Origin: Escherichia coli
GTDB lineage: Bacteria > Pseudomonadota > Gammaproteobacteria > Enterobacterales > Enterobacteriaceae
Reading direction: 5' to 3' (one strand)
Length of the DNA stretch: 64,000 nt
Assembly: GCF_048403405.1 (NCBI RefSeq)
Contig: NZ_CP183129.1
Shown here: piece by piece, positions 50,010 through 64,000 of the stretch
How positions within the stretch are numbered: position 1 is the stretch's first letter
How the letters are laid out: each line of letters opens with the position of its first letter
The notes under the pieces: model-generated
What the model saw: only the letters and a program-made list of their open reading frames with translations
Told to the model about the DNA's origin: nothing
Database searches by the model: none
Program-made: the position numbers and the translations under genes

Positions 50010-51053
50010 ATGAGCGAGAACTCGATTCGTTTGACCCAATACAGCCACGGAGCTGGTTGCGGCTGTAAAATTTCCCCAAAAGTGTTGGAAACCATCCTGC
50101 ACAGTGAGCAGGCGAAGTTTGTTGATCCGAATTTGCTTGTGGGTAATGAAACCCGCGACGATGCGGCGGTGTACGATCTGGGCAATGGCACCAGCGTTAT
50201 CAGTACCACCGACTTCTTTATGCCGATCGTTGATAATCCTTTCGATTTTGGCCGCATTGCGGCGACTAACGCCATCAGCGATATCTTCGCGATGGGGGGC
50301 AAACCGATTATGGCGATTGCGATCCTCGGCTGGCCGATTAACAAACTTTCCCCGGAAATTGCCCGCGAAGTAACCGAAGGTGGACGCTATGCATGCCGTC
50401 AGGCGGGTATTGCGCTGGCTGGCGGTCACTCCATCGATGCGCCGGAGCCGATTTTTGGTCTGGCGGTAACGGGGATCGTACCGACCGAGCGGGTGAAGAA
50501 AAACAGTACCGCACAAGCCGGATGCAAACTGTTCCTGACGAAACCGCTGGGGATCGGCGTTCTTACCACGGCTGAGAAAAAATCACTGCTGAAACCAGAA
50601 CATCAGGGACTGGCGACGGAAGTGATGTGCCGGATGAACATCGCAGGCGCGTCCTTTGCCAACATCGAAGGCGTAAAAGCGATGACCGACGTTACGGGCT
50701 TTGGTCTGCTGGGGCATTTAAGCGAAATGTGTCAGGGTGCTGGTGTGCAGGCGCGCGTCGACTATGAAGCGATCCCGAAACTGCCGGGGGTTGAAGAGTA
50801 CATTAAGTTGGGCGCAGTGCCTGGCGGCACCGAACGTAACTTTGCCAGCTACGGTCATCTGATGGGTGAAATGCCGCGTGAAGTGCGCGATCTGCTGTGC
50901 GATCCGCAAACTTCTGGCGGTCTGCTGCTGGCGGTCATGCCGGAAGCAGAAAATGAGGTCAAAGCTACAGCCGCCGAGTTTGGCATTGAACTGACGGCGA
51001 TTGGCGAACTGGTGCCAGCGCGCGGCGGTCGTGCCATGGTTGAGATCCGTTAA
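50010..51053 (+). CDS. selD: selenide, water dikinase (selenophosphate synthetase)
   Basis: Start taken at [23 protein letters not shown]… (347 aa); PurM-like fold. Confidence 0.92.
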
Positions 51054-54433: not shown

Positions 54434-54668
54434 AGATATAAAACCCTTATATATTAATACGATTGTGCTTATGTTGTTTATGTCATGTGCTTTTGCAGTT
54501 TTCGACTATACCATCAAGAATGTGACGGTAAGCAAGAAAAAAATGACCCAGGAAAGCAAATTAATAACGAGAGTAATCTCATAACCAAATGCGATAACTC
54601 AGACGCTAAAGTTTTGCCACCCGGCTACCGTTATCAGTAGCAGAGACAATAACGTTAAGGAGTTCCCT

Positions 54669-54941
54669 GTGAGTCGAGCATTGTTCGCCGTAGTATTAGC
54701 ATTTCCATTAATTGCACTGGCTAACCCGCATTATCGTCCGGACGTGGAGGTAAACGTACCGCCAGAAGTGTTCAGTTCAGGCGGGCAGTCAGCGCAGCCC
54801 TGTACTCAGTGCTGCATTTATCAGGATCAAAATTATTCTGAAGGGGCGGTAATTAAAGCCGAAGGAATACTGCTGCAATGCCAGCGTGATGACAAAACCC
54901 TTAGCACTAATCCGCTGGTCTGGCGGCGCGTAAAGCCATAA
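54669..54941 (+). CDS. ynjH: DUF1496 secreted protein
   Basis: 90-aa ORF with GTG start after AAGGAG and an N-terminal signal peptide. Confidence 0.85.
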   Translation: MSRALFAVVLAFPLIALANPHYRPDVEVNVPPEVFSSGGQSAQPCTQCCIYQDQNYSEGAVIKAEGILLQCQRDDKTLSTNPLVWRRVKP

Positions 54942-55314
54942 ACGCCTCTAATAATGGAATGTCAGCAGGGGCCAGCGGATATTGCAGCGCCTCTTCAGGT
55001 GAGCACCAGACCAGCGCCTGATGTTCATGTGCCTGTAACGTCCCGTGGAAGTCGGGTACGTGCCAGGCATGAAGATGGATAATCCGCCCCGAAACTTCTC
55101 GCTGATGGCTGGCAACATATTCACCCACAGCTGCTTCGATGCCCAGTTCTTCGCGTAACTCACGCACCAGCGCCTGCCGCTGGCTTTCATCCGGCTCGAC
55201 TTTACCACCGGCAAACTCCCATAATCCCGCCTGATCGCTATGGGCGGGGCGTTGCGCGAGTAAAATTTTGCCATCACGTTCGATGATGGCGGCAACAACT
55301 TCAACCATTTTCAT
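54907..55314 (-). CDS. nudG: CTP pyrophosphohydrolase (Nudix)
   Basis: 135-aa ORF; Nudix box GGKVEPDESQRQALVRELREELGI. Confidence 0.9.
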   Translation of the reverse strand: MKMVEVVAAIIERDGKILLAQRPAHSDQAGLWEFAGGKVEPDESQRQALVRELREELGIEAAVGEYVASHQREVSGRIIHLHAWHVPDFHGTLQAHEHQALVWCSPEEALQYPLAPADIPLLEAFMALRAARPAD

Positions 55315-55400
55315 AAATTACACACGGGTAGATAAGCGAAAAATGCCATAATATCCGCACTGTTGCTCAATCAGAAAGGCTTTATATTTAAGGAGTGCCT

Positions 55401-56021
55401 GTGCTAGACCGCCATCTTCATCCCCGAATTAAACCTTTGTTGCATCAGTGTGTGAAGGTGCTGGATAAACCCGGCATCACGCCAGATGGTTTAACATTAG
55501 TGGGATTTGCCATCGGTGTGCTGGCACTGCCTTTTCTGGCGCTGGGCTGGTATCTGGCGGCGCTTGTCGTCATTTTGTTAAACAGGCTGCTTGATGGTCT
55601 GGACGGTGCGCTGGCGCGGCGCAGAGGGCTTACCGACGCGGGCGGCTTTCTCGATATTTCTCTCGATTTTCTCTTTTACGCGCTGGTGCCGTTTGGTTTT
55701 ATTCTTGCTGCACCGGAGCAAAATGCGCTGGCAGGCGGCTGGCTGCTGTTTGCGTTTATCGGTACGGGCAGCAGTTTTCTCGCCTTTGCTGCACTGGCAG
55801 CAAAACATCAGATTGATAACCCCGGTTATGCACATAAGTCGTTTTACTATCTGGGGGGATTAACCGAAGGCACTGAAACGATCTTACTGTTTGTGCTGGG
55901 ATGTTTATTCCCTGCATGGTTTGTGTGGTTTGCGTGGATCTTCGGTGCGTTGTGCTGGATGACGACCTTTACGCGGGTGTGGAGTGGGTATCTGACGCTG
56001 AAGTCGCTCCAGCGTCAGTAA
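55401..56021 (+). CDS. ynjF: CDP-alcohol phosphatidyltransferase-family membrane protein
   Basis: Start taken at GTG 55401, 5 nt after AAGGAG (206 aa); motif DGLDGALARRRG. Confidence 0.85.
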   Translation: MLDRHLHPRIKPLLHQCVKVLDKPGITPDGLTLVGFAIGVLALPFLALGWYLAALVVILLNRLLDGLDGALARRRGLTDAGGFLDISLDFLFYALVPFGFILAAPEQNALAGGWLLFAFIGTGSSFLAFAALAAKHQIDNPGYAHKSFYYLGGLTEGTETILLFVLGCLFPAWFVWFAWIFGALCWMTTFTRVWSGYLTLKSLQRQ

Positions 56022-56029
56022 TTGCAATG

Positions 56030-57337
56030 TTATTTGCTGCTGTCCGGGCCGCGTTCACCGGTTGCAACCGGATTTTTTGGATCGCTGCTCCATTCGTACC
56101 AGCCGCCGTCGTAAACGGAGACGTTATTCCAGCCCATTGCTCGTGCGTACATAAAGGTTTCGGATGCGCGCCAGCCGGTGCCGCAGTAGAATGAAACTTG
56201 CTGATCTGGCTTGATATTCCATGCTTTCCACATAGCGGTAATATCATCGGCGCTACGCATGGTGCCATCCGGGTTATGGAAATCTTCCATATGCGTCGAG
56301 TCGCTACCAGCGTGTCCCCAACGTGCTCCGGCTATTTCACCTTTTGGTTTAATATAGCTGTAACCGCTGGTCGTACCGATAAATTCTGGCCACGAACGAA
56401 TGCTCACCAGCGATGCATCCTGGCGATGCAGCAGTCCACGCGCCTGTTCCATATCAAGCATCAGTTGCGGTTGTGCCGGGATCTTCACGCCGAAATCCGG
56501 TTCCGCTTTCACTTTCGGTGGCGTTCCGCGCTCAACAGGCAGTCCCGCGTCGGACCAGGTTTGCCAGCCGCCATCCAGCAGGCGCACATCTTTCACGCCG
56601 GCATAAAGCATTATCTGCGCCACACGCGCTGCAGCGTATACGTCACGCCCGTACAGAATGACCGTGGTGTCATGGCGAATGCCGTGTTTTGCCAGCATCG
56701 CTTTTAGTTGTTCATCAGAAACTTTGTTCCACAGCGGTTCGCTTTCCACTTCGTTGGTATCGATGTAGTCAGCGCCGGGAATATGACTGATAAGGTAAAG
56801 CTTAGGAGCGCCCCAGGCCGCTTCAATGACTTTCCAGTCACCGGCAGGTTTCGCCGTAACCTCTTTACCTTGTTGCAGGTCGTGCAGCCATTGCGGATAA
56901 ACCAGCTGCTCAAAGTGCGGCAGTTTTTGCAGACGGGAAGGTTCACTTAGCGCGTCACTCAGGATGGAGATATGCGTAAAACCTGCTTTTTGCAGACGCG
57001 TTTTGACGGCATCGACATCTTTGTCATTACCGTACAGCGCAACCGGAGCATCGGCTTTCAGGTTATGTAGCTTGATCCACGCGTTAAGCTGTTCGGTGCT
57101 CATTTTGTCGAGCCAGCTGGCAGAGAGGTTTAAGGCGGCAGGCTCATGACCAGAAGGGCCATTTAAGATTTGTGGCCAGCCGTTATAAAACGCGCTGGGG
57201 CGAGTATCTATCGCTTTGCCATTTTGTTGTTGAAGCTGGTCAAGTGTAAGAGGCTTCGCCAGTTCAGCGGCCCACGAAGAAGCGCAAGCCAGCCCTAAAG
57301 CCATTGCCAGCGCGGTCATTTGAGAAACACGTTTCAT
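56030..57337 (-). CDS. ynjE: periplasmic thiosulfate sulfurtransferase (rhodanese domains)
   Basis: Start taken at MKRVSQMTALAMALGLACASSWA… (435 aa); catalytic cysteine motif CGTGWR. Confidence 0.9.
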   Translation of the reverse strand: MKRVSQMTALAMALGLACASSWAAELAKPLTLDQLQQQNGKAIDTRPSAFYNGWPQILNGPSGHEPAALNLSASWLDKMSTEQLNAWIKLHNLKADAPVALYGNDKDVDAVKTRLQKAGFTHISILSDALSEPSRLQKLPHFEQLVYPQWLHDLQQGKEVTAKPAGDWKVIEAAWGAPKLYLISHIPGADYIDTNEVESEPLWNKVSDEQLKAMLAKHGIRHDTTVILYGRDVYAAARVAQIMLYAGVKDVRLLDGGWQTWSDAGLPVERGTPPKVKAEPDFGVKIPAQPQLMLDMEQARGLLHRQDASLVSIRSWPEFIGTTSGYSYIKPKGEIAGARWGHAGSDSTHMEDFHNPDGTMRSADDITAMWKAWNIKPDQQVSFYCGTGWRASETFMYARAMGWNNVSVYDGGWYEWSSDPKNPVATGERGPDSSK

Positions 57338-57403
57338 CGAAAATCCCGACATTGTAGTTTTGAGTGCGCCATTCTGAACTGACGCATTGGGAAAAACTTT
57401 GCG

Positions 57404-58057
57404 TTATCGCAGTTTGTTGTAATTTTCTGACCACTGCGCCATATCCAGAACAGAACTATCAGCAGGAACATCCTGGAGATCGTGCGTTACCTGAACGACT
57501 GGGATCGCCTGGGCGCGAACTTCGCTGAACACCCACTGGCGAAAATTATCGCGCAGAGCTACATCAAGACGGCTGAATGGCTCATCCAGTAGCAACGCTT
57601 TTGGCTGAGCGAGAAGAGCGCGAAGCAGAGCAACGCGCGCTCGCTGACCGCCAGACAAAGTGGCAGGATCCTGATGGAACATACCGCCAAGCCCCGCACG
57701 CTCCAGCGCATCATTTACCGCATCGCGCCTTGCAACACCTTTGAGTGCCGCTGGCAGAGCCAGCAGTAAATTTTGCCCGACGCTGAACTGGTCAAATAAC
57801 AGTGCATCCTGGAAAAGAATGCCAATCTGACGCTCTGCGGTGGGTAGCATGTCAATCCGTTGCTCATTGAGCCATAGCTCACCTGTACAAGAAAACTGTC
57901 CGGCCAGCGCACCAATCATCCATGAAAACAGAGTGGATTTTCCACAGCCAGACGGCCCCATTAACGTGACAATGTCACATTTATCCACCGTAAAGTTAAC
58001 GTTTGTCAGCAAGCAGCTTTCTGGTAAACGTAGCGAAACATTTTTCACGCAGAGCAT
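57404..58057 (-). CDS. ynjD: ABC transporter ATP-binding protein
   Basis: Start taken at MLCVKNVSLRL… (217 aa); Walker A GPSGCGKST, signature LSGGQRARV, Walker B LLLDEP. Confidence 0.9.
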   Translation of the reverse strand: MLCVKNVSLRLPESCLLTNVNFTVDKCDIVTLMGPSGCGKSTLFSWMIGALAGQFSCTGELWLNEQRIDMLPTAERQIGILFQDALLFDQFSVGQNLLLALPAALKGVARRDAVNDALERAGLGGMFHQDPATLSGGQRARVALLRALLAQPKALLLDEPFSRLDVALRDNFRQWVFSEVRAQAIPVVQVTHDLQDVPADSSVLDMAQWSENYNKLR

Positions 58058-59592
58058 TAGCGGAGTCCTTGTCTGACATAACCTACCCATTTTGCGACTA
58101 ACGCGGTCAGGGCAAAAATAATAAGCGGCAACAGTAGTTGCCATAAAGCCTGGGCGGCGAGAATACCGTTGCTGCCGCCGCTGCTTAATGCCACCGCTTC
58201 AGTGGTGAGCGTCGGAAAACGCCCCGCGCCCAGCCACAGCGTCGGCATATACTGTGCAATACTGACTGAAAATCCCACCGCGAAGACAATCAGCGCAGGG
58301 CGTAGCATGAGTGGGCATTTCACGTAAAAGAAGATTTTGGCCCGCGACCAGCCCAGTGTTTGCGCAATCAAAATTAACCGTGAATCAATGCGCTGCCAGG
58401 CGGGTTGCAGGATAAACAGCATCCACGGCATTACCCACAGCAGATGCCCCCAGACCACCGCCGTCCAGCTTCCATCCAGGTTTAGCCATAGCGCCAGCGT
58501 GTACTGGCCCGCCACCAGTGGCAGAGCGGGTAATAAAATGGGCAACCATAGCCACAACTGGCGACGTTGTGGCCCCCATTCCAGCCACAGCAGTAACAGG
58601 AGCAAAGCGATGAATGTCGCCACCAGCCCCATTGTCAGGCTGTTGATGAGCGCTTCACTATTGATCGTCGACTGATCCGCGAGGATCGCCAGCAGAACCA
58701 CACACAGCACACCGGTCAAGGGTAAAAAACTCGCCAGCGTATTGCCTGGCAATAAAGACGTGGCAGGCTTACGAACGCCATCTACGCGGGGAATATTACG
58801 CCGCCAGCCACGCCATAGCAGATAGCCCAGCAAAACGTAGGCGGCGAGTAACAGCATCAGCAGCAGGCTGGCGAGTGCGCCTTTCGTTTGTTGATCGGCG
58901 TCGCCCTGAGTTAACCACTGCCAGCTAATTACTGCCAGCGTCGGGGGATTACCTGGCCCAAGGATAATCGCCACATCCACGACCGACAGCGACCAGGCGA
59001 CAATCGCCAGCATCGCCATTGCCAGTGCAGGTGCGACGGAGGGCAACAACAGCCAGTTCAGGCATTGCCAGCGGCTGTAGCCCAGCGAATCCAGTACAAT
59101 GACCTGCTGCAACAGCCGTTTTTCGCTCAATACTGCTGCTAAGATCCACAGCAGAAATGCGCTTTCTTTCACTGCAAGGGTGAGGCCCAGCCCAATACCC
59201 AATTTGTCCATTGGCGGAGTGAAATACGGGAAATAGTCATAAAGCAGCCCTCCGTCAGCAAAGAGCAGAAGGGCGCTGGTGGCAAAAGCCACATGGGGAA
59301 TGGCGAGCAGCCACGGCAGACGGGCGCACATACGCTGCCATTTCGGCCCTGGCCACAGCGCCACAATCACCAGCAGGGCAATCAACAACGCCCCGACCGC
59401 CGCGATGGTTGTCGACACCAGCGTTGCCAGTAATGCCTGCGGTAACTGTGGATCGGCAAATAACGTCTGCCAGTGTGTCAACGACAAAGCAGGCGATATC
59501 AGCGTGAGAGCTGCCGGGATCAGCGGTGCATAAATCACCGCCACCATCGCCCACAGCAAAAAGATTAATGCGTACCGTAACGGTGTAGCCAT
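58057..59592 (-). CDS. ynjC: ABC transporter permease (two fused permease domains)
   Basis: Start taken at MATPLRYALIFLLWAM… (511 aa); stop overlaps ynjD start (TAATG). Confidence 0.88.
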   Translation of the reverse strand: MATPLRYALIFLLWAMVAVIYAPLIPAALTLISPALSLTHWQTLFADPQLPQALLATLVSTTIAAVGALLIALLVIVALWPGPKWQRMCARLPWLLAIPHVAFATSALLLFADGGLLYDYFPYFTPPMDKLGIGLGLTLAVKESAFLLWILAAVLSEKRLLQQVIVLDSLGYSRWQCLNWLLLPSVAPALAMAMLAIVAWSLSVVDVAIILGPGNPPTLAVISWQWLTQGDADQQTKGALASLLLMLLLAAYVLLGYLLWRGWRRNIPRVDGVRKPATSLLPGNTLASFLPLTGVLCVVLLAILADQSTINSEALINSLTMGLVATFIALLLLLLWLEWGPQRRQLWLWLPILLPALPLVAGQYTLALWLNLDGSWTAVVWGHLLWVMPWMLFILQPAWQRIDSRLILIAQTLGWSRAKIFFYVKCPLMLRPALIVFAVGFSVSIAQYMPTLWLGAGRFPTLTTEAVALSSGGSNGILAAQALWQLLLPLIIFALTALVAKWVGYVRQGLR

Positions 59593-60734
59593 TCTTGTTC
59601 CAGCGCATTTACCCAACCTGCGTGCGGTTCAGCCAGTACCGGCGGCAGATCCTGCGGCATTCTCGATTGCAATGTTTCGCGCTGCCCGTCAGGCAGTTTT
59701 TGCGGATCGAGAACAGAAGGATCGCCCCAGACAGCGGGATCTGCTTTACGCAATTGCGCATCGGGTGAGAGCAGGAAATTGGCAACTACCTTCGCCGCAG
59801 CACTGGCATTCGCGTTGGCAGGAATGGTGACGAAATGGACGTTGCCAATCATCCCCTCGCGAAAACCAAAACTGTAACTGCTTGCAGGCAAATCGCCGCT
59901 GGCGATTTTTTGCTGCGCATGAGCAGGATTAAAGGTCAGCGACAGGCGCAATGTGCCGGCTTTCAGCAGAGCATCCATCCGCGCGGGCGAAGGCGGGAAA
60001 TCCTTTCCTTCGCGCCATAAATACGGATGCAGTGCATCAAGATATTGCCACAAGGGCGCAGTGACACGGGCGAAAGTCGCAACGTCCGGGGTTTCTTTTA
60101 AAGCTGCGGGATCGGGCGTCAGCATAATCAGCAACTGTTCAAGAAACGCCGTGCCGGTAAAGTCCGGTGGGCGCGGATAGGTAACCGTGCCAGGATTGGC
60201 TTTAGCAAACTCCAGCAACGCTTGCGGCGTTTGTGGTGGCTGTGGCGTAACATCGCGGCGGGCGATAAACGTCAGTTGTGCGCCACCCCAGGGCGATTCA
60301 GCCCCTTCTGTAGGCACTGAAAAATCTTCCCGCACCGGCAGCTGTGTGTCGACATAGCGCCAGTTGGGCAGAGTCTCCACCCAGCCCGTTTGTAATAAAT
60401 TGGCCTCTTTTAAGGTGCGGAAGTTTTCGCCGTTCACCCAGAGCAGATCCACCGAACCGCCTGTTTTGCGTCCGGCAGCAGCTTCGGTCTGAATGCGCTT
60501 CACCGCGTCTGCGGCATCCGCGAGACGAACAATCTTCAGGTTTATAGCGTAATGGGTTTTCATCTCGCCGCTAACCCAGTCGAGATAGCGGTTAATTGCC
60601 GTATCGCCGCCCCAGGCGTTAAACCAGACGGTTTGCCCTTTGGCGTCGTTTTTGATTTCCTGCCAGTCACTGGCATGTGTTGCCAAAGAAAACAGCGATA
60701 ACAATCCCAGCAACCACACACAATGGCGCATCAT
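59565..60734 (-). CDS. ynjB: ABC transporter periplasmic substrate-binding protein
   Basis: 389-aa ORF with signal peptide; 3' end overlaps the ynjC start. Confidence 0.88.
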   Translation of the reverse strand: MMRHCVWLLGLLSLFSLATHASDWQEIKNDAKGQTVWFNAWGGDTAINRYLDWVSGEMKTHYAINLKIVRLADAADAVKRIQTEAAAGRKTGGSVDLLWVNGENFRTLKEANLLQTGWVETLPNWRYVDTQLPVREDFSVPTEGAESPWGGAQLTFIARRDVTPQPPQTPQALLEFAKANPGTVTYPRPPDFTGTAFLEQLLIMLTPDPAALKETPDVATFARVTAPLWQYLDALHPYLWREGKDFPPSPARMDALLKAGTLRLSLTFNPAHAQQKIASGDLPASSYSFGFREGMIGNVHFVTIPANANASAAAKVVANFLLSPDAQLRKADPAVWGDPSVLDPQKLPDGQRETLQSRMPQDLPPVLAEPHAGWVNALEQEWLHRYGTH

Positions 60735-60740
60735 CTCTCC

Positions 60741-61289
60741 TTAAGAACGTTTTTCAGGAATACGGCACAGCCCCTGAGCGGGAATGTCCATGGCAGAATT
60801 AAAACGGGCTGACAGGTTTTGCAGTCCGATCAATGCCGTCAGTTCGGTGAGCGCCTGGGCGTCAAAATGCGCAGCCAGTCGGGTACGCAGGGCATCATCG
60901 ACCGTTGGCGGCGTTACGCTTGCGGCTTCGGCGTACTCCAGCGCCAGCCGTTCTTCATCGCTAAAAAGCGGGCTTTGCCGCCAGTCAGCCACTGCCAGCA
61001 GTTTATCGGTGCTGCCAGTGCGCTCGGCGACTTTCATACTGGTGATATCCACGCAAAACTCACACAGACACATTTGCGCAATGCGCGCGCTGACAAGCGA
61101 TCGCACTACTGGATCCAGCGGTGAGCGTTTGCGCTCCAGCCAGCCGACAAACATCGACACCAGATAAAAGATAAACGGGATCCGCCCCCACCAGCGAATC
61201 GGGCTTAGCACCTCGCCGTAATGGCGACGATGCAGCCACGCCTGCGGACGTAAAATGAAAGGAATTTTGCTAAGCGGCGGTAAACCCAT
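60741..61289 (-). CDS. ynjA: carboxymuconolactone decarboxylase / AhpD-like protein
   Basis: 182-aa ORF. Confidence 0.88.
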   Translation of the reverse strand: MGLPPLSKIPFILRPQAWLHRRHYGEVLSPIRWWGRIPFIFYLVSMFVGWLERKRSPLDPVVRSLVSARIAQMCLCEFCVDITSMKVAERTGSTDKLLAVADWRQSPLFSDEERLALEYAEAASVTPPTVDDALRTRLAAHFDAQALTELTALIGLQNLSARFNSAMDIPAQGLCRIPEKRS

Positions 61290-61996
61290 CAGGCATTCCT
61301 CTTCTGGCGCTCAAGCCATATTTTCTTCGCCATAAAAATCACCACGGTCAGGGCAAACAGAATAAACAGTCCGGTGATAAACCAGAAAGTACCGCCTGTT
61401 AACATGCTGCCCGCCCAGGAATAAACAATAGTCGCCGGTAACTGACCAAGCCCGGTGGCGATAATAAACGAGCGAAAACGTATTGAAGTCAAACCGGCAG
61501 CATAGCTTACGGGATCAAAAGGCACAAAAGGCAATAATCGGCATACCAGAATGGTGTGTTTACCATAGCGGGTAAAAAAGCCGTCCATACTATTGAGTAC
61601 CGTTTTACCCGTTAACTTTTCCACCACTTCGCGGCCCATCACTCTGGCGATAAAAAAGCACAGCGCCGCGCCGGCCATCGAACTGGTCCACGACAGCAAG
61701 CCGCCCCAGAGCGCGCCAAACAGCGACGCATTGGCAAAGGTGATCAAAAACGCAGGTAGCGGTGCAGCAATGGCCTGTAAAATCATCAACAAGAACGAGA
61801 CAACTGCCGCCAGTGCGCCGTAAGACTGAATAAAGCGTTCTATACCCTGTTGGTCCACGGCGGCAAACGCCGCAACGCTGCGATTGATAAACTCATGGAC
61901 GCCGGGAAGCAGCGCCCATGCCAGCAGCATAGCGAACAACAGGATGATGAGGGTTATACGGTAATACCAGATTTTTCGCGATTGCATCTTCATCAT
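61289..61996 (-). CDS. ydjZ: TVP38/TMEM64 (DedA-related) inner-membrane protein
   Basis: 235-aa hydrophobic ORF; 1-nt overlap with ynjA. Confidence 0.88.
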   Translation of the reverse strand: MMKMQSRKIWYYRITLIILLFAMLLAWALLPGVHEFINRSVAAFAAVDQQGIERFIQSYGALAAVVSFLLMILQAIAAPLPAFLITFANASLFGALWGGLLSWTSSMAGAALCFFIARVMGREVVEKLTGKTVLNSMDGFFTRYGKHTILVCRLLPFVPFDPVSYAAGLTSIRFRSFIIATGLGQLPATIVYSWAGSMLTGGTFWFITGLFILFALTVVIFMAKKIWLERQKRNA

Positions 61997-62010
61997 CCTT
62001 TATTCTGGCT

Positions 62011-62688
62011 TTATTCGGTGATTTTAAAGGTAACCGTTGCCAGCGTGTTATCCGCCGGGAGAACCGAGGCATTGCCTTTGAATTTAACTTCACCTCGTTT
62101 TTCAACCGCACCATAAGTGTATGTTGCATTGCTGACGATGCCGACCGGGCAGCTATCCAGACACACCAGGCAGCCCGTTTTCTTCTCTTCTGCTGCCGTT
62201 AAATTACCGCCAAAGCGCATGTCCAGTTTCTTGCCATTACTGTCAACAATCACTTCATCGAAGGAATACGCTTTTGCCGCCCCTTGCCAGTTGACCGAAA
62301 TATCCAGTTTGCTGCCTGTGACATGAGTCGTTTCTTTATTATCCATCGTCATATTTTCGCCTGGCGTACCACCGACCTCTTTCAGGGCTTCATAAAATGC
62401 TTTCGGGGTCGCATAACCCATAAACAGCGATTTATGTCCGTTGGAGCCATCTTTAAACACAATACCGTGACGAGTGTCGTCGGTAAGGAAACGACCATTA
62501 ATTTGCACCAGCATGGTTACCGTATGGTTATTGGCATCGACGCGCAGCGGTTGGCTGTTCGAAAGTTCGTCGTATTCCACTTTTGCCGCCGCATTCTCTT
62601 TTTGATCGCAGCCGCTAAGCCCGGCAACAGCCAGTAAGCAGAGTGCAGTCAGTCCTTTTTTCCATGACGCTGAATAATGTTGCAACAT
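62011..62688 (-). CDS. ydjY: lipoprotein of unknown function
   Basis: Start taken at MLQHYSASWKKGLTALCLLAVAGLSGC… (225 aa) with lipobox LSGC; the longer track ORF has no plausible signal peptide. Confidence 0.82.
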   Translation of the reverse strand: MLQHYSASWKKGLTALCLLAVAGLSGCDQKENAAAKVEYDELSNSQPLRVDANNHTVTMLVQINGRFLTDDTRHGIVFKDGSNGHKSLFMGYATPKAFYEALKEVGGTPGENMTMDNKETTHVTGSKLDISVNWQGAAKAYSFDEVIVDSNGKKLDMRFGGNLTAAEEKKTGCLVCLDSCPVGIVSNATYTYGAVEKRGEVKFKGNASVLPADNTLATVTFKITE

Positions 62689-62692
62689 CGTT

Positions 62693-63403
62693 CTATCCTT
62701 CATTTTTTGGGTGAGTAAGTGGGCTGCGGCGCGAAGCAGACAGATCCACATGTTTGTGTCGAGCATAGAGTTTGGCGAGCTGGACGAGAATAAACAGCGC
62801 CAGGCCCGCCAGACAGAGTTGTAAAATAAAGCGCAGCGTAATGCCTTCATTGGCGAGATCGCTTGCCATCACGGTATAAATAACAATACCGGGCAGAGTC
62901 GTAAGTGCTGAAATAAGGGTATAAGGCCAGAAGGCGATTGTGGTTAATCCGTAAGCGTAATTTTGAATATTGTAAGGAAACAACGGGATTAAGCGGGTCA
63001 GAATAAGAAAATCAATACCGTTACGCGCAATGCCTTTCTCAATGGCCTGGAAGGTATGGCTATGGCCAACGTATTTCAGCAGTAAATCACGTCCCAGCCA
63101 GCGCGCCAGCAGGAATGAGCACGAGGAGGCCAGCGTGGCGGCAATTAATGATAGTAGTGTCCCTAAGAGCGGGCCAAAAACTATTCCTCCAGCGATCACC
63201 AGTATGCTTCCTGGTAACAGAAAGAGGGTGGCAATGATGAATAACAGAATATAGAGGCTATAACCGAACAATCCGCTCTGGCGAATGAGTGTCAGTAAAT
63301 GAGGTAAATCGGTGAGCAGCTCGAATAAACCGAAAGCGTGGAAAGCGTAAATGACCAGCGCAAAAATAAGACAGGCAAAAAGAAATTTACGCTCAGCGTT
63401 CAT
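62693..63403 (-). CDS. ydjX: TVP38/TMEM64 (DedA-related) inner-membrane protein
   Basis: Start taken at MNAERKFLFACLIFALVIYAF… (236 aa). Confidence 0.85.
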   Translation of the reverse strand: MNAERKFLFACLIFALVIYAFHAFGLFELLTDLPHLLTLIRQSGLFGYSLYILLFIIATLFLLPGSILVIAGGIVFGPLLGTLLSLIAATLASSCSFLLARWLGRDLLLKYVGHSHTFQAIEKGIARNGIDFLILTRLIPLFPYNIQNYAYGLTTIAFWPYTLISALTTLPGIVIYTVMASDLANEGITLRFILQLCLAGLALFILVQLAKLYARHKHVDLSASRRSPLTHPKNEG

Positions 63404-63569
63404 TGTGGAGTTTCCTATATCAAACTTGATAATAGAGAAGTGGTCAGACAACTAAAAACGCAGTGACGGTATAACAAAGGGCGGCAGGCAACAAATCATT
63501 ACTGACAGTTTGTTGATTTTTCTCAAGGTTAATTCTCCTGACCCAGTTTGAGCCAGGAGAACAGCTAAA

Positions 63570-64000
63570 TTAGCGGCGGAAGGTCGCCCAGACGGGGGCG
63601 TGATCGGACGGTTTTTCCATGCTGCGGATTTCATAGTCGATGCCGGTTTCTACGCAACATTCTGCCAGCGGTTGGCTGGCGAGAAGCAGGTCGATACGCA
63701 GACCGCGGTTATCGTCAAAACCTTTTGAGCGGTAATCAAACCATGAGAAACGATCGGCTGTTTGCGGATTCGCATGGCGGAAGGTATCGACCAACCCCCA
63801 GCTCATCAGTCTCTCCATCCATTCGCGTTCTTCCGGAAGGAAAGAGCATTTTCCGGTACGCAGCCAGCGCTTACGGTTCTCTTCGCCAATGCCAATATCC
63901 AGGTCGCCAGGACTGATATTCATATCGCCCATAATCAGCACCGGATTTTCACGCTTGAGTTCGGTTTCCAGGTAGTTTTGCAGATTCTGATAAAACTGCG
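63570..64000 (-). CDS. xthA: exodeoxyribonuclease III, partial (5' end beyond window end)
   Basis: Minus-strand frame open to the window edge; C-terminus …[16 protein letters not shown] with catalytic His. Confidence 0.88.

Follow-up and report, generated by a model that had tools for sequence, protein, structure and literature searches.

Comparative genomics links the predicted Escherichia coli importer genes ynjBCD to the CDP-alcohol phosphotransferase gene ynjF

The ynjB, ynjC, ynjD and ynjE genes of Escherichia coli encode a predicted ATP-binding cassette (ABC) importer and an exported rhodanese. We analysed them in a 64,000-nucleotide (nt) stretch of contig NZ_CP183129.1 (assembly GCF_048403405.1), referred to here as the window, where they occupy positions 56030-60734. 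A sequence-only reading of this stretch had treated the four genes as one set, but our comparison of loci shows that the conserved partner of ynjBCD is ynjF, a gene for a cytidine diphosphate (CDP)-alcohol phosphotransferase that lies on the opposite strand just beyond those positions. Our tentative proposal, made with a little less than even confidence, is that YnjBCD imports a polar precursor from which YnjF forms a lipid head group, with ynjE as an EanB-like, periplasmic addition of the enteric lineage. The ynjBCD-ynjE locus is known, annotated and functionally orphan, and its unknown function is already common knowledge. In the literature that could be searched, we found no precedent for the coupling and fusion of YnjF or for the leads towards VTT proteins and flavoproteins of the SelD type.

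Linkage of ynjBCD and ynjF

Diverse YnjB homologues were taken from a representative search; the 90%-clustered database gave only close enterobacterial relatives of YnjB and YnjF. A genome scan with an alignment of 11 YnjB sequences yielded 80 loci, which were retrieved with 10-kb flanks and searched with the E. coli proteins. Sixteen of these loci are from Enterobacteriaceae and 64 are from other lineages, many of the latter being truncated. Linkage to ynjF was counted in the 50 non-enterobacterial YnjB loci that contain ynjD and at least 700 nt downstream.

In 37 of these 50 loci a ynjF gene directly follows ynjD on the same strand, with orthologues that are 47-64% identical. Its start lies between -32 and +73 nt from the ynjD stop codon, mostly with an overlap. 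One further locus has a value of -79, and another has ynjF upstream of ynjB. Loci with the ynjBCD-ynjF arrangement were found in Vibrio and Photobacterium (Vibrionaceae), Comamonadaceae and other Burkholderiales, Deefgea (Neisseriales), Methylobacillus, Oceanospirillaceae and Desulfosediminicola (Desulfobacterota). Independent gene calls on a metagenomic contig agree with this order: a TonB receptor, a VTT::oxidoreductase fusion, a substrate-binding protein, a permease, an ATPase and a CDP-OH_P_transf protein. The ynjD-ynjF linkage suggests that ynjB-ynjC-ynjD-ynjF was the ancestral operon.

The gene order is different in Enterobacteriaceae. There, the gene after ynjD is ynjE in 15 of the 16 loci (every locus that has ynjD), at a distance of 38-106 nt. 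Thirteen loci reach far enough to show the next gene, which is always ynjF, convergent with ynjE; ynjF has stayed beside the cluster despite its inversion. No YnjE-type protein was found in the 64 loci outside this family. From these gene orders, ynjF appears to have been inverted in the enteric lineage and ynjE to have been inserted between ynjD and ynjF. As the adjacency of ynjD and ynjE is confined to Enterobacteriaceae, it is not an ancient functional link. The association of transporter and rhodanese in the sequence-only reading is thus a real enteric adjacency that is missing elsewhere, and ynjE has a promoter of its own (see below).

The partnership with YnjF also occurs within a single polypeptide. 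A metagenomic protein of 591 amino acids (P0188) joins a YnjF-like N-terminal half to a YnjB-type C-terminal half. The N-terminal half aligns with the full length of E. coli YnjF (35% identity, E = 2e-18) and has an intact catalytic signature, and the P0188 gene is preceded by a C_GCAxxG_C_C gene and two VTT genes. Other YnjB-type fusions involve an ICMT/PEMT-type membrane methyltransferase or a GT2 glycosyltransferase. We tie the importer to YnjF on the strength of the operon linkage together with these fusions, in which the partners are membrane enzymes with lipid-linked substrates.

E. coli YnjF scores 43 bits against PF01066 (cutoff 22). The signature D-x2-D-G-x2-A-R-x7-G-x3-D-x3-D (DGLDGALAR-x7-G-x3-D-x3-D) is present in 41 of 41 YnjF orthologues and, with this motif intact, YnjF looks catalytically competent. 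Its structural model (pLDDT, the per-residue model confidence, 88) has a six-helix fold that is nearest to phosphatidylinositol phosphate (PIP) synthases, AF2299 and DIPPS (TM-scores of 0.65-0.79), with PgsA, the phosphatidylglycerol phosphate synthase, much more distant. YnjF reached no cutoff of a substrate-specific subfamily (PIP, archaetidylinositol phosphate (AIP), PC, PS or PGP synthase); its best scores were for AIP synthase (64 against 180) and PIP synthase (43 against 170). The ynjF gene is nearly absent from the searchable literature, where we found no functional study of it.

The predicted importer and its possible cargo

YnjB, YnjC and YnjD have the substrate-binding protein, permease and ATPase features of a binding-protein-dependent type I ABC importer. 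YnjB scores 54 bits against SBP_bac_8 and 559 bits against NF008633 (cutoff 203), its N-terminus resembles a signal peptide, and its AlphaFold model (pLDDT 95) has neighbours with the periplasmic-binding-protein fold. In YnjC we count approximately 12 hydrophobic segments, and EAA-like loops occur at residues 170 (LGYSRW) and 413 (LGWSRA). The Pfam model BPD_transp_1 scores YnjC only in its C-terminal half (residues 346-502) and BLASTP comparison of one half with the other is not significant (E = 0.12-0.22). The double-permease model PhnU2 aligns with YnjC in two stretches, across both halves, and we base the duplication in YnjC on these matches, the EAA loops and the helix count. YnjD scores 99.8 bits against ABC_tran and contains a Walker A motif (GPSGCGKST at residue 34), LSGGQ at 134, a Walker B motif (LLLDEP at 155) and an H-loop (VTHD at 190). 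Taken together, ynjBCD is predicted to be a binding-protein-dependent ABC importer of the uncharacterised family COG4134-4136. Annotation, domains and motifs all agree with the gene identities and architecture that had been read from the sequence.

The nearest solved folds to the YnjB model are PhnS, PotD, FutA/FbpA, AfuA and ThiB, at 12-18% identity, with the PhnS structure 4r6y as the top match (16% identity, TM-score of 0.65). Direct searching of the YnjB sequence against the PDB returned no relative at E <= 0.01. Such distant relatives, reached by fold and profile searches only, do not allow a ligand to be assigned by homology. In profile comparison, the YnjB family comes nearest to polyamine- and opine-binding proteins (E ~1e-6), and a profile alignment places the PotD ligand-contact positions at the conserved YnjB residues W98, N100, E102, N297 and H299. 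This weakly suggests a ligand of amine or polyol type over an oxyanion.

The curated equivalog models ThiQ, PhnT2, PhnU2, CysA, CysT, PotA and ModC were all missed by a wide margin. For thiamine transport (ThiBPQ), YnjD scores 129 against a cutoff of 245 and 127 against 298 with ThiQ models, and neither YnjB nor YnjC matches ThiB or ThiP. The 2-aminoethylphosphonate models gave 135 against 458 (PhnT2) and 32 against 593 (PhnU2), and the CysPUWA models gave 129 against 343 (sulfate ATPase), 102 against 502 (CysA) and 22 against 246 (CysT). The COG label for YnjBCD is "uncharacterized transport system" (PMC9207381), and a 2022 paper states that there are no direct studies of the substrate of ynjC (PMC9184624). 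We found no documented substrate or transport data for YnjBCD in the searched literature, so the earlier remark that the substrate is undefined still holds.

These results bear on the simplest explanation of the locus, in which YnjBCD is a redundant importer of thiamine, polyamines or 2-aminoethylphosphonate, YnjE has its role elsewhere, such as in the sulfuration of the molybdenum cofactor, and the neighbouring genes are unconnected. Database entries of homologues do carry the label "putative thiamine transport system", PhnT2, PhnU2 and ThiQ score best among the sub-threshold models, PhnS, PotD and ThiB come nearest in fold and profile, and a study of FNR labels YnjE "molybdopterin synthase sulfurtransferase" (PMC3688515). 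However, the thiamine labels are homology guesses, all equivalog scores are far under their cutoffs, YnjB lacks a sequence relative in the PDB at the threshold above, and the linkage and fusion with ynjF are too consistent for chance. The proposed role of YnjE as a molybdopterin sulfur carrier is undercut by the normal chlorate and hydroxylaminopurine (base-analogue) phenotypes of a ynjE deletion (PMC3831636), and an exported YnjE is ill-placed to act with the cytoplasmic proteins MoaD and MoeB. We consider this explanation very unlikely.

Because ynjF is the ancient, translationally coupled partner of the importer genes, we propose instead that the importer brings in the alcohol used by YnjF. 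The importer genes are transcribed under anaerobiosis in E. coli, within ydjXYZ-ynjABCD, and in this model YnjBCD would import a small polar hydroxylated solute, likelier of the amine or polyol type than an oxyanion. YnjF would take the imported solute as its alcohol acceptor and join it to a CDP-activated lipid, giving a minor membrane lipid that the VTT/DedA proteins YdjX and YdjZ could redistribute across the membrane. The ynjE gene would be a later, Enterobacteriaceae-specific addition between ynjD and the inverted ynjF, with its own FNR promoter. The exported, EanB-like YnjE would probably carry a periplasmic persulfide and may modify or accompany the imported solute. The use of the imported solute by YnjF, the lipid product, the flipping by VTT proteins and the chemistry of YnjE are all steps that we infer.

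Support for the model comes from the ynjBCD-ynjF linkage and fusion, the YnjF signature, the company of VTT genes, the YnjB profile and a colistin phenotype. The ynjC mutation P213S, which arose in colistin evolution experiments, confers a strong fitness advantage under colistin (PMC9184624), a phenotype of envelope charge. This would reflect a changed envelope, and the ynjBCD-ynjF link offers a rationale for it.

Several points count against the model. We know of no report of a YnjF-dependent species in E. coli lipidomics. No ynjF gene lies nearby in 11 of the 50 loci, mostly from Alphaproteobacteria, and the E. coli ynjF and ynjBCD genes are transcribed from different strands, with no FNR regulation of ynjF reported in the searched literature. 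The inference about the YnjB pocket is built on alignments of 12-18% identity. Finally, simple head-group import does not explain the recurring redox- and selenium-associated neighbours, namely the FAD disulfide reductase fusions, TIGR03169, SelD, the CxxC protein YnjA and the rhodaneses.

Locus organisation, FNR control and YnjE

In a genome comparison, several E. coli chromosomes matched positions 56030-60734 with 100% identity, and 5408 of 5426 complete E. coli genomes contained at least 80% of this interval, with its genes annotated as ynjB, ynjC, ynjD and ynjE. These are genuine genes and not chance open reading frames (ORFs), and RefSeq places all four on the minus strand, in keeping with an earlier same-strand claim that had left the strand unsaid. 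The features of the locus are listed in Table 1. The upstream limit first given for the gene set, 60734, is an ATG one codon before the RefSeq start of ynjB (60731); the genes within the span are as described. The ynjB/ynjC junction is a 28-nt overlap and the ynjC stop codon overlaps the ynjD start codon by 1 nt (TAATG), so the overlapping start and stop codons that had been noted are present within ynjBCD. The spacing of the rhodanese gene from ynjD is 66 nt, and ynjE is therefore near, yet not coupled.

Table 1. Coordinates of genes and sequence elements at the ynj locus (positions in the window).
Feature	Position	Strand	Description
ynjB	60731..59565	-	388 amino acids; periplasmic substrate-binding protein with signal peptide; RefSeq start
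ynjC	59592..58057	-	511 amino acids; fused double permease
ynjD	58057..57404	-	217 amino acids; ABC ATPase without C-terminal regulatory domain
ynjE	57337..56030	-	435 amino acids; exported three-domain rhodanese
ynjF	55401..56021	+	206 amino acids; CDP-alcohol phosphotransferase membrane protein; convergent with ynjE
ynjA	60741..61289	-	CMD/AhpD-like protein with CEFC (CxxC) motif; PF02627, 36 bits
ydjZ	61289..61996	-	VTT/DedA-superfamily membrane protein, COG0398 branch; PF09335, 85.8 bits
ydjY	62011..62688	-	Lipoprotein; NF040466, 148 bits
ydjX	62693..63403	-	VTT/DedA-superfamily membrane protein; first gene of the operon; PF09335, 93 bits
FNR-box-like TTGATTTTTCTCAA	63513..63526		Upstream of ydjX; one mismatch to TTGAT-N4-ATCAA
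14-bp palindrome CTGCGATAACGCAA	57412..57399	-	Over the ynjD stop codon; candidate FNR operator of the ynjE promoter
Inverted repeat CTGACGCTG, 9-nt loop, CAGCGTCAG	55992..56018		Perfect 9 bp; in the final codons of ynjF
selD	about 50010-51053		4.3 kb from ynjF, behind unrelated genes

The transcription unit extends beyond the coordinates of the sequence-only reading. The spacings of ydjX/ydjY (4 nt), ydjY/ydjZ (14 nt), ydjZ/ynjA (-1 nt) and ynjA/ynjB (9 nt) make one packed block down to ynjD, so that the operon is ydjX-ydjY-ydjZ-ynjA-ynjB-ynjC-ynjD and the ynjE promoter is separate. In the published data, ydjXYZ-ynjABCD is directly activated by FNR from a site at -60.5 and ynjE has a separate FNR-dependent promoter with a site at -41.5 (PMC3688515). 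The box TTGATTTTTCTCAA agrees with the former site. A search with the FNR consensus allowing up to two mismatches found this ydjX site and no match in the ynjD-ynjE spacer. Comparison of 15 enterobacterial ynjD-ynjE spacers did reveal the palindrome CTGCGATAACGCAA, which most of them keep and three have in degenerate form. A -10-like CAGAAT (57376..57371) implies a transcription start that puts the palindrome centre at -41.5, equal to the published distance. The palindrome fits the FNR consensus at five of 10 bases and, because of this, its attribution to FNR rests on the chromatin immunoprecipitation data. A scan with promoter and terminator consensus sequences gave a TACAAT-containing match before ynjE and little else. 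Overproduction of BaeR mildly induces ynjABCD, probably indirectly (PMC2731931).

The inverted repeat formed by CTGACGCTG and CAGCGTCAG lies, as read from the sequence, 12 nt beyond the ynjE stop codon and may form a common 3' end structure for the convergent genes ynjE and ynjF. These two genes are listed among overlapping convergent transcript pairs, as are nudG and ynjH (PMC12288877). The nudG gene (minus strand) shares 35 nt with ynjH (plus strand) where their 3' ends meet, at 54907-54941. An Rfam scan of positions 54500-64000 detected no RNA family.

The upstream genes vary between genera. Among the loci examined, ydjY is found only in Escherichia and one Citrobacter. The ynjA gene lies before ynjB in Escherichia and Klebsiella and before ynjF in Buttiauxella, Citrobacter and Enterobacter. 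In these last three genera ynjA and ynjF make up a two-gene unit, with an 8-nt overlap in Buttiauxella (L084 8436-9621). This distribution points to ynjA as a mobile member of the ynjBCD/ynjF gene set. The best NCBIfam match of YnjA is a YciW-related family (101 bits, cutoff 310). An in-frame YnjA::YnjB protein of 574 amino acids with CMD and substrate-binding domains (P0002) was seen on an E. coli-like contig; as the 9-nt ynjA-ynjB spacer is in frame, it is explicable by loss of the ynjA stop codon. The ynjC gene is broken into two or three ORFs in Klebsiella (L083 11656-13190) and Vibrio mexicanus (L065 11128-12829), which may reflect pseudogenes or sequencing frameshifts.

YnjE has three Pfam rhodanese stretches and an active-site loop CGTGWR at residues 385-390 (56185..56168), in line with the signal-peptide-bearing multi-rhodanese protein first described. 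It is nearly identical, with a few strain substitutions, to PDB entries 3ipo and 2wlr (E = 5e-286 to 3ipo); the N-terminal signal peptide is missing from the crystallised chains. Next after its own structures come chains 6h98, 6ktv and 6kvw (E ~1e-89, 38% identity), which the PDB table names only "Sulfurtransferase". We take these chains to be EanB of Chlorobium limicola, as published EanB residue numbers land on the expected residue types. The EanB-type catalytic residues (Cys412, Tyr353, Thr414 and Arg417) all have counterparts at the aligned positions of YnjE. We found no gene for a histidine methyltransferase (EanA/EgtD, hercynine-forming) within 6 kb on either side and, as YnjE is also exported, we do not class it as an ergothioneine synthase. 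A 2023 paper describes YnjE as periplasmic with an unclear physiological substrate, and reports that the purified protein has little or no thiosulfate:glutathione or 3-mercaptopyruvate activity (PMC10215317). Seebeck's group places YnjE with the EanB-like enzymes whose function is unknown and which may add sulfur to heterocycles (PMC9516567).

The presence of a rhodanese raises the alternative that YnjBCD imports a sulfur compound (for example, one derived from thiosulfate or polysulfide) that is made or used by YnjE, with redox partners processing it inside the cell. The position of ynjE behind ynjD in 15 of 16 enteric loci, the FNR activation of both promoters and the export of both YnjB and YnjE are consistent with this, as are the similarity of the CxxC-containing, AhpD-like YnjA to YciW-type proteins and the fusion of VTT domains to class I disulfide reductases in 15 loci. 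Rhodanese genes also occur in two of the 64 non-enteric loci, those of V. mexicanus and V. rotiferianus. In both, VTT-ynjBCDF comes after same-strand genes for an exported two-domain rhodanese, a GltD-like iron-sulfur flavoprotein and a CCG (HdrB-like) protein. This rhodanese is unrelated to YnjE, so the association is a weaker, independent one that leaves some sulfur link alive. On the other side, the remaining 62 non-enteric loci lack rhodanese genes, ynjE is set apart by its promoter and 66-nt gap, and purified YnjE has little or no activity with thiosulfate or 3-mercaptopyruvate (PMC10215317). Furthermore, the YnjB family resembles polyamine and opine binders and not sulfate or thiosulfate binders, and YnjD and YnjC score far under the CysA and CysT cutoffs. 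Import of a sulfur compound for YnjE is, in our assessment, improbable.

Recurrent neighbours and comparison with known systems

Beyond ynjF, the most frequent neighbours encode VTT-domain proteins, which accompany 15 of the 16 enteric clusters and 20 of the 64 others. In 15 of the 20 non-enteric cases the VTT domain forms a fusion with a class I FAD disulfide reductase. A TIGR03169 ("Nterm_to_SelD") oxidoreductase is found near the cluster in 10 of 64 non-enteric loci; the five such proteins that were scanned, one of them a SelD fusion, all score above the curated cutoff. SelD is near the cluster in five of 64 (three as TIGR03169::SelD fusions), and SelD or TIGR03169 is present in 11 of 64 combined, all from Beta- and Alphaproteobacteria. 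DUF3047 is present in seven of 64. In several Burkholderiales, SelD or TIGR03169::SelD lies directly beside ynjBCDF-VTT-DUF3047 (L034, L055, L021, L047 and L071 were noted for SelD-type neighbours), and standalone TIGR03169 genes lie within or beside the operon in Deefgea, Pseudorhizobium and Aureimonas. The E. coli locus has no TIGR03169 gene. In the enteric loci selD is 3-7 kb from ynjF and falls inside the 10-kb flank in 11 of 16.

The chance of a single-copy gene falling in a 20-kb window is well below 1%. Given this expectation, the SelD/TIGR03169 association is unlikely to be due to chance, even allowing for related genomes. It is a neighbourhood signal and not an operon. Sub-threshold NCBIfam names (YciW-related, rhodanese-related and ExtH) were considered as evidence for selenium and rejected, as they reflect general family homology only.

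This signal is the basis of a third alternative, a chalcogen route in which the solute, or a perselenide bound to YnjE, would be imported, reduced by a flavoprotein and passed to SelD for anaerobic selenoproteins. Apart from the TIGR03169 and SelD counts and the enteric position of selD, it draws on FNR activation, which would suit the synthesis of anaerobic formate dehydrogenase, and on the C_GCAxxG_C_C protein at the P0188 locus, whose family is among predicted selenoproteins (PMC9312934). According to the same 2022 review, a high-affinity selenium transporter has yet to be identified (PMC9312934), which makes the SelD lead worth recording. However, the enteric selD gene is parted from ynjF by the unrelated genes topB, gdhA and nudG and belongs to a different transcription unit, the Burkholderiales cases are partly non-independent, and the YnjB family is unlike oxyanion binders. 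The route also leaves ynjF, the strongest partner, unexplained, and earlier comparative screens named YedE, YedF, DUF3343 and LysR_Se and not the ynj cluster (PMC5322559). We regard it as unlikely.

A broader possibility is that the ynjBCD-ynjF core, VTT/DedA proteins, disulfide reductases, TIGR03169/SelD and the enteric YnjE together form an undescribed envelope pathway for a sulfur- or selenium-bearing molecule, which would serve either as a redox-active lipid head group or as a supply for SelD. We consider this unlikely. If true, the SelD-delivery option would be the long-sought specific selenium acquisition route of anaerobic enterobacteria, and the cluster is nominated here as a candidate for the open question of selenium uptake. 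Independently of these readings, the comparative result gives the orphan families COG4134-6, YnjF and bacterial COG0398 DedA one common context.

Two further gene arrangements were observed near the cluster. On one metagenomic contig, a gene for a TonB-dependent receptor lies directly upstream of VTT::reductase-ynjBCD-ynjF (L086 2462-4831), which hints that the solute may need active transport across the outer membrane. In several Comamonadaceae (L035, L044, L020, L079, L054 and L040), genes for MbnB/TglH/ChrH-like (DUF692), DUF2063 and DoxX proteins lie right upstream of ynjB; this set is similar to bufferin-type peptide clusters.

The head-group model can be compared with known systems for each of its components. 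PIP and AIP synthases, AF2299 and DIPP synthase share the full catalytic signature and a similar fold with YnjF, but YnjF scores far under the PIP and AIP synthase family cutoffs. To our knowledge, inositol lipids do not occur in E. coli. YdjX and YdjZ have the VTT domain of the COG0398 (TMEM41B/VMP1-like) branch, whose members have been put forward as phospholipid scramblases (bioRxiv 10.1101/2023.01.04.522824). Among the fusions reported for COG0398, that with a pyridine nucleotide-disulfide oxidoreductase is the commonest, and it is also the one that stands beside ynjBCDF in 15 loci. The branch has been linked to aerobic metabolism (bioRxiv 10.1101/2023.01.04.522824); ydjX and ydjZ are activated by FNR instead.

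For YnjE, the closest comparison is EanB, the anaerobic ergothioneine synthase, which has the same three-domain rhodanese architecture and an identical loop, FYCGTGWR. EanB residues Glu345, Tyr353, Tyr411, Cys412, Thr414 and Arg417, with catalytic roles described previously (PMC10903977, PMC9103826), correspond to E318, Y326, Y384, C385, T387 and R390 of YnjE. The differences are Tyr375 of EanB, which is T348 in YnjE, and the export of YnjE.

For the importer, PotD, PotF, SpuD and an agropine-binding protein share the C-terminal lobe motif AIPANAK..GAL..INFLL with the YnjB family. Their alignment covers only part of YnjB, however, the aromatic contacts of PotD are replaced by the conserved W, N, E and H, and YnjC and YnjD have no polyamine permease or ATPase signature at cutoff. 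ThiBPQ, PhnSTUV-type and FbpABC/AfuABC systems are built in the same way as YnjBCD, with one substrate-binding protein, a fused double permease of approximately 510-550 amino acids and one short ATPase, and their binding proteins belong to the same fold class as YnjB. YnjB is approximately 60 residues longer than binding proteins of the ThiB, PhnS, FbpA and AfuA type, to which it is 12-18% identical. Unlike ynjBCD, none of these systems is coupled to a CDP-alcohol phosphotransferase.

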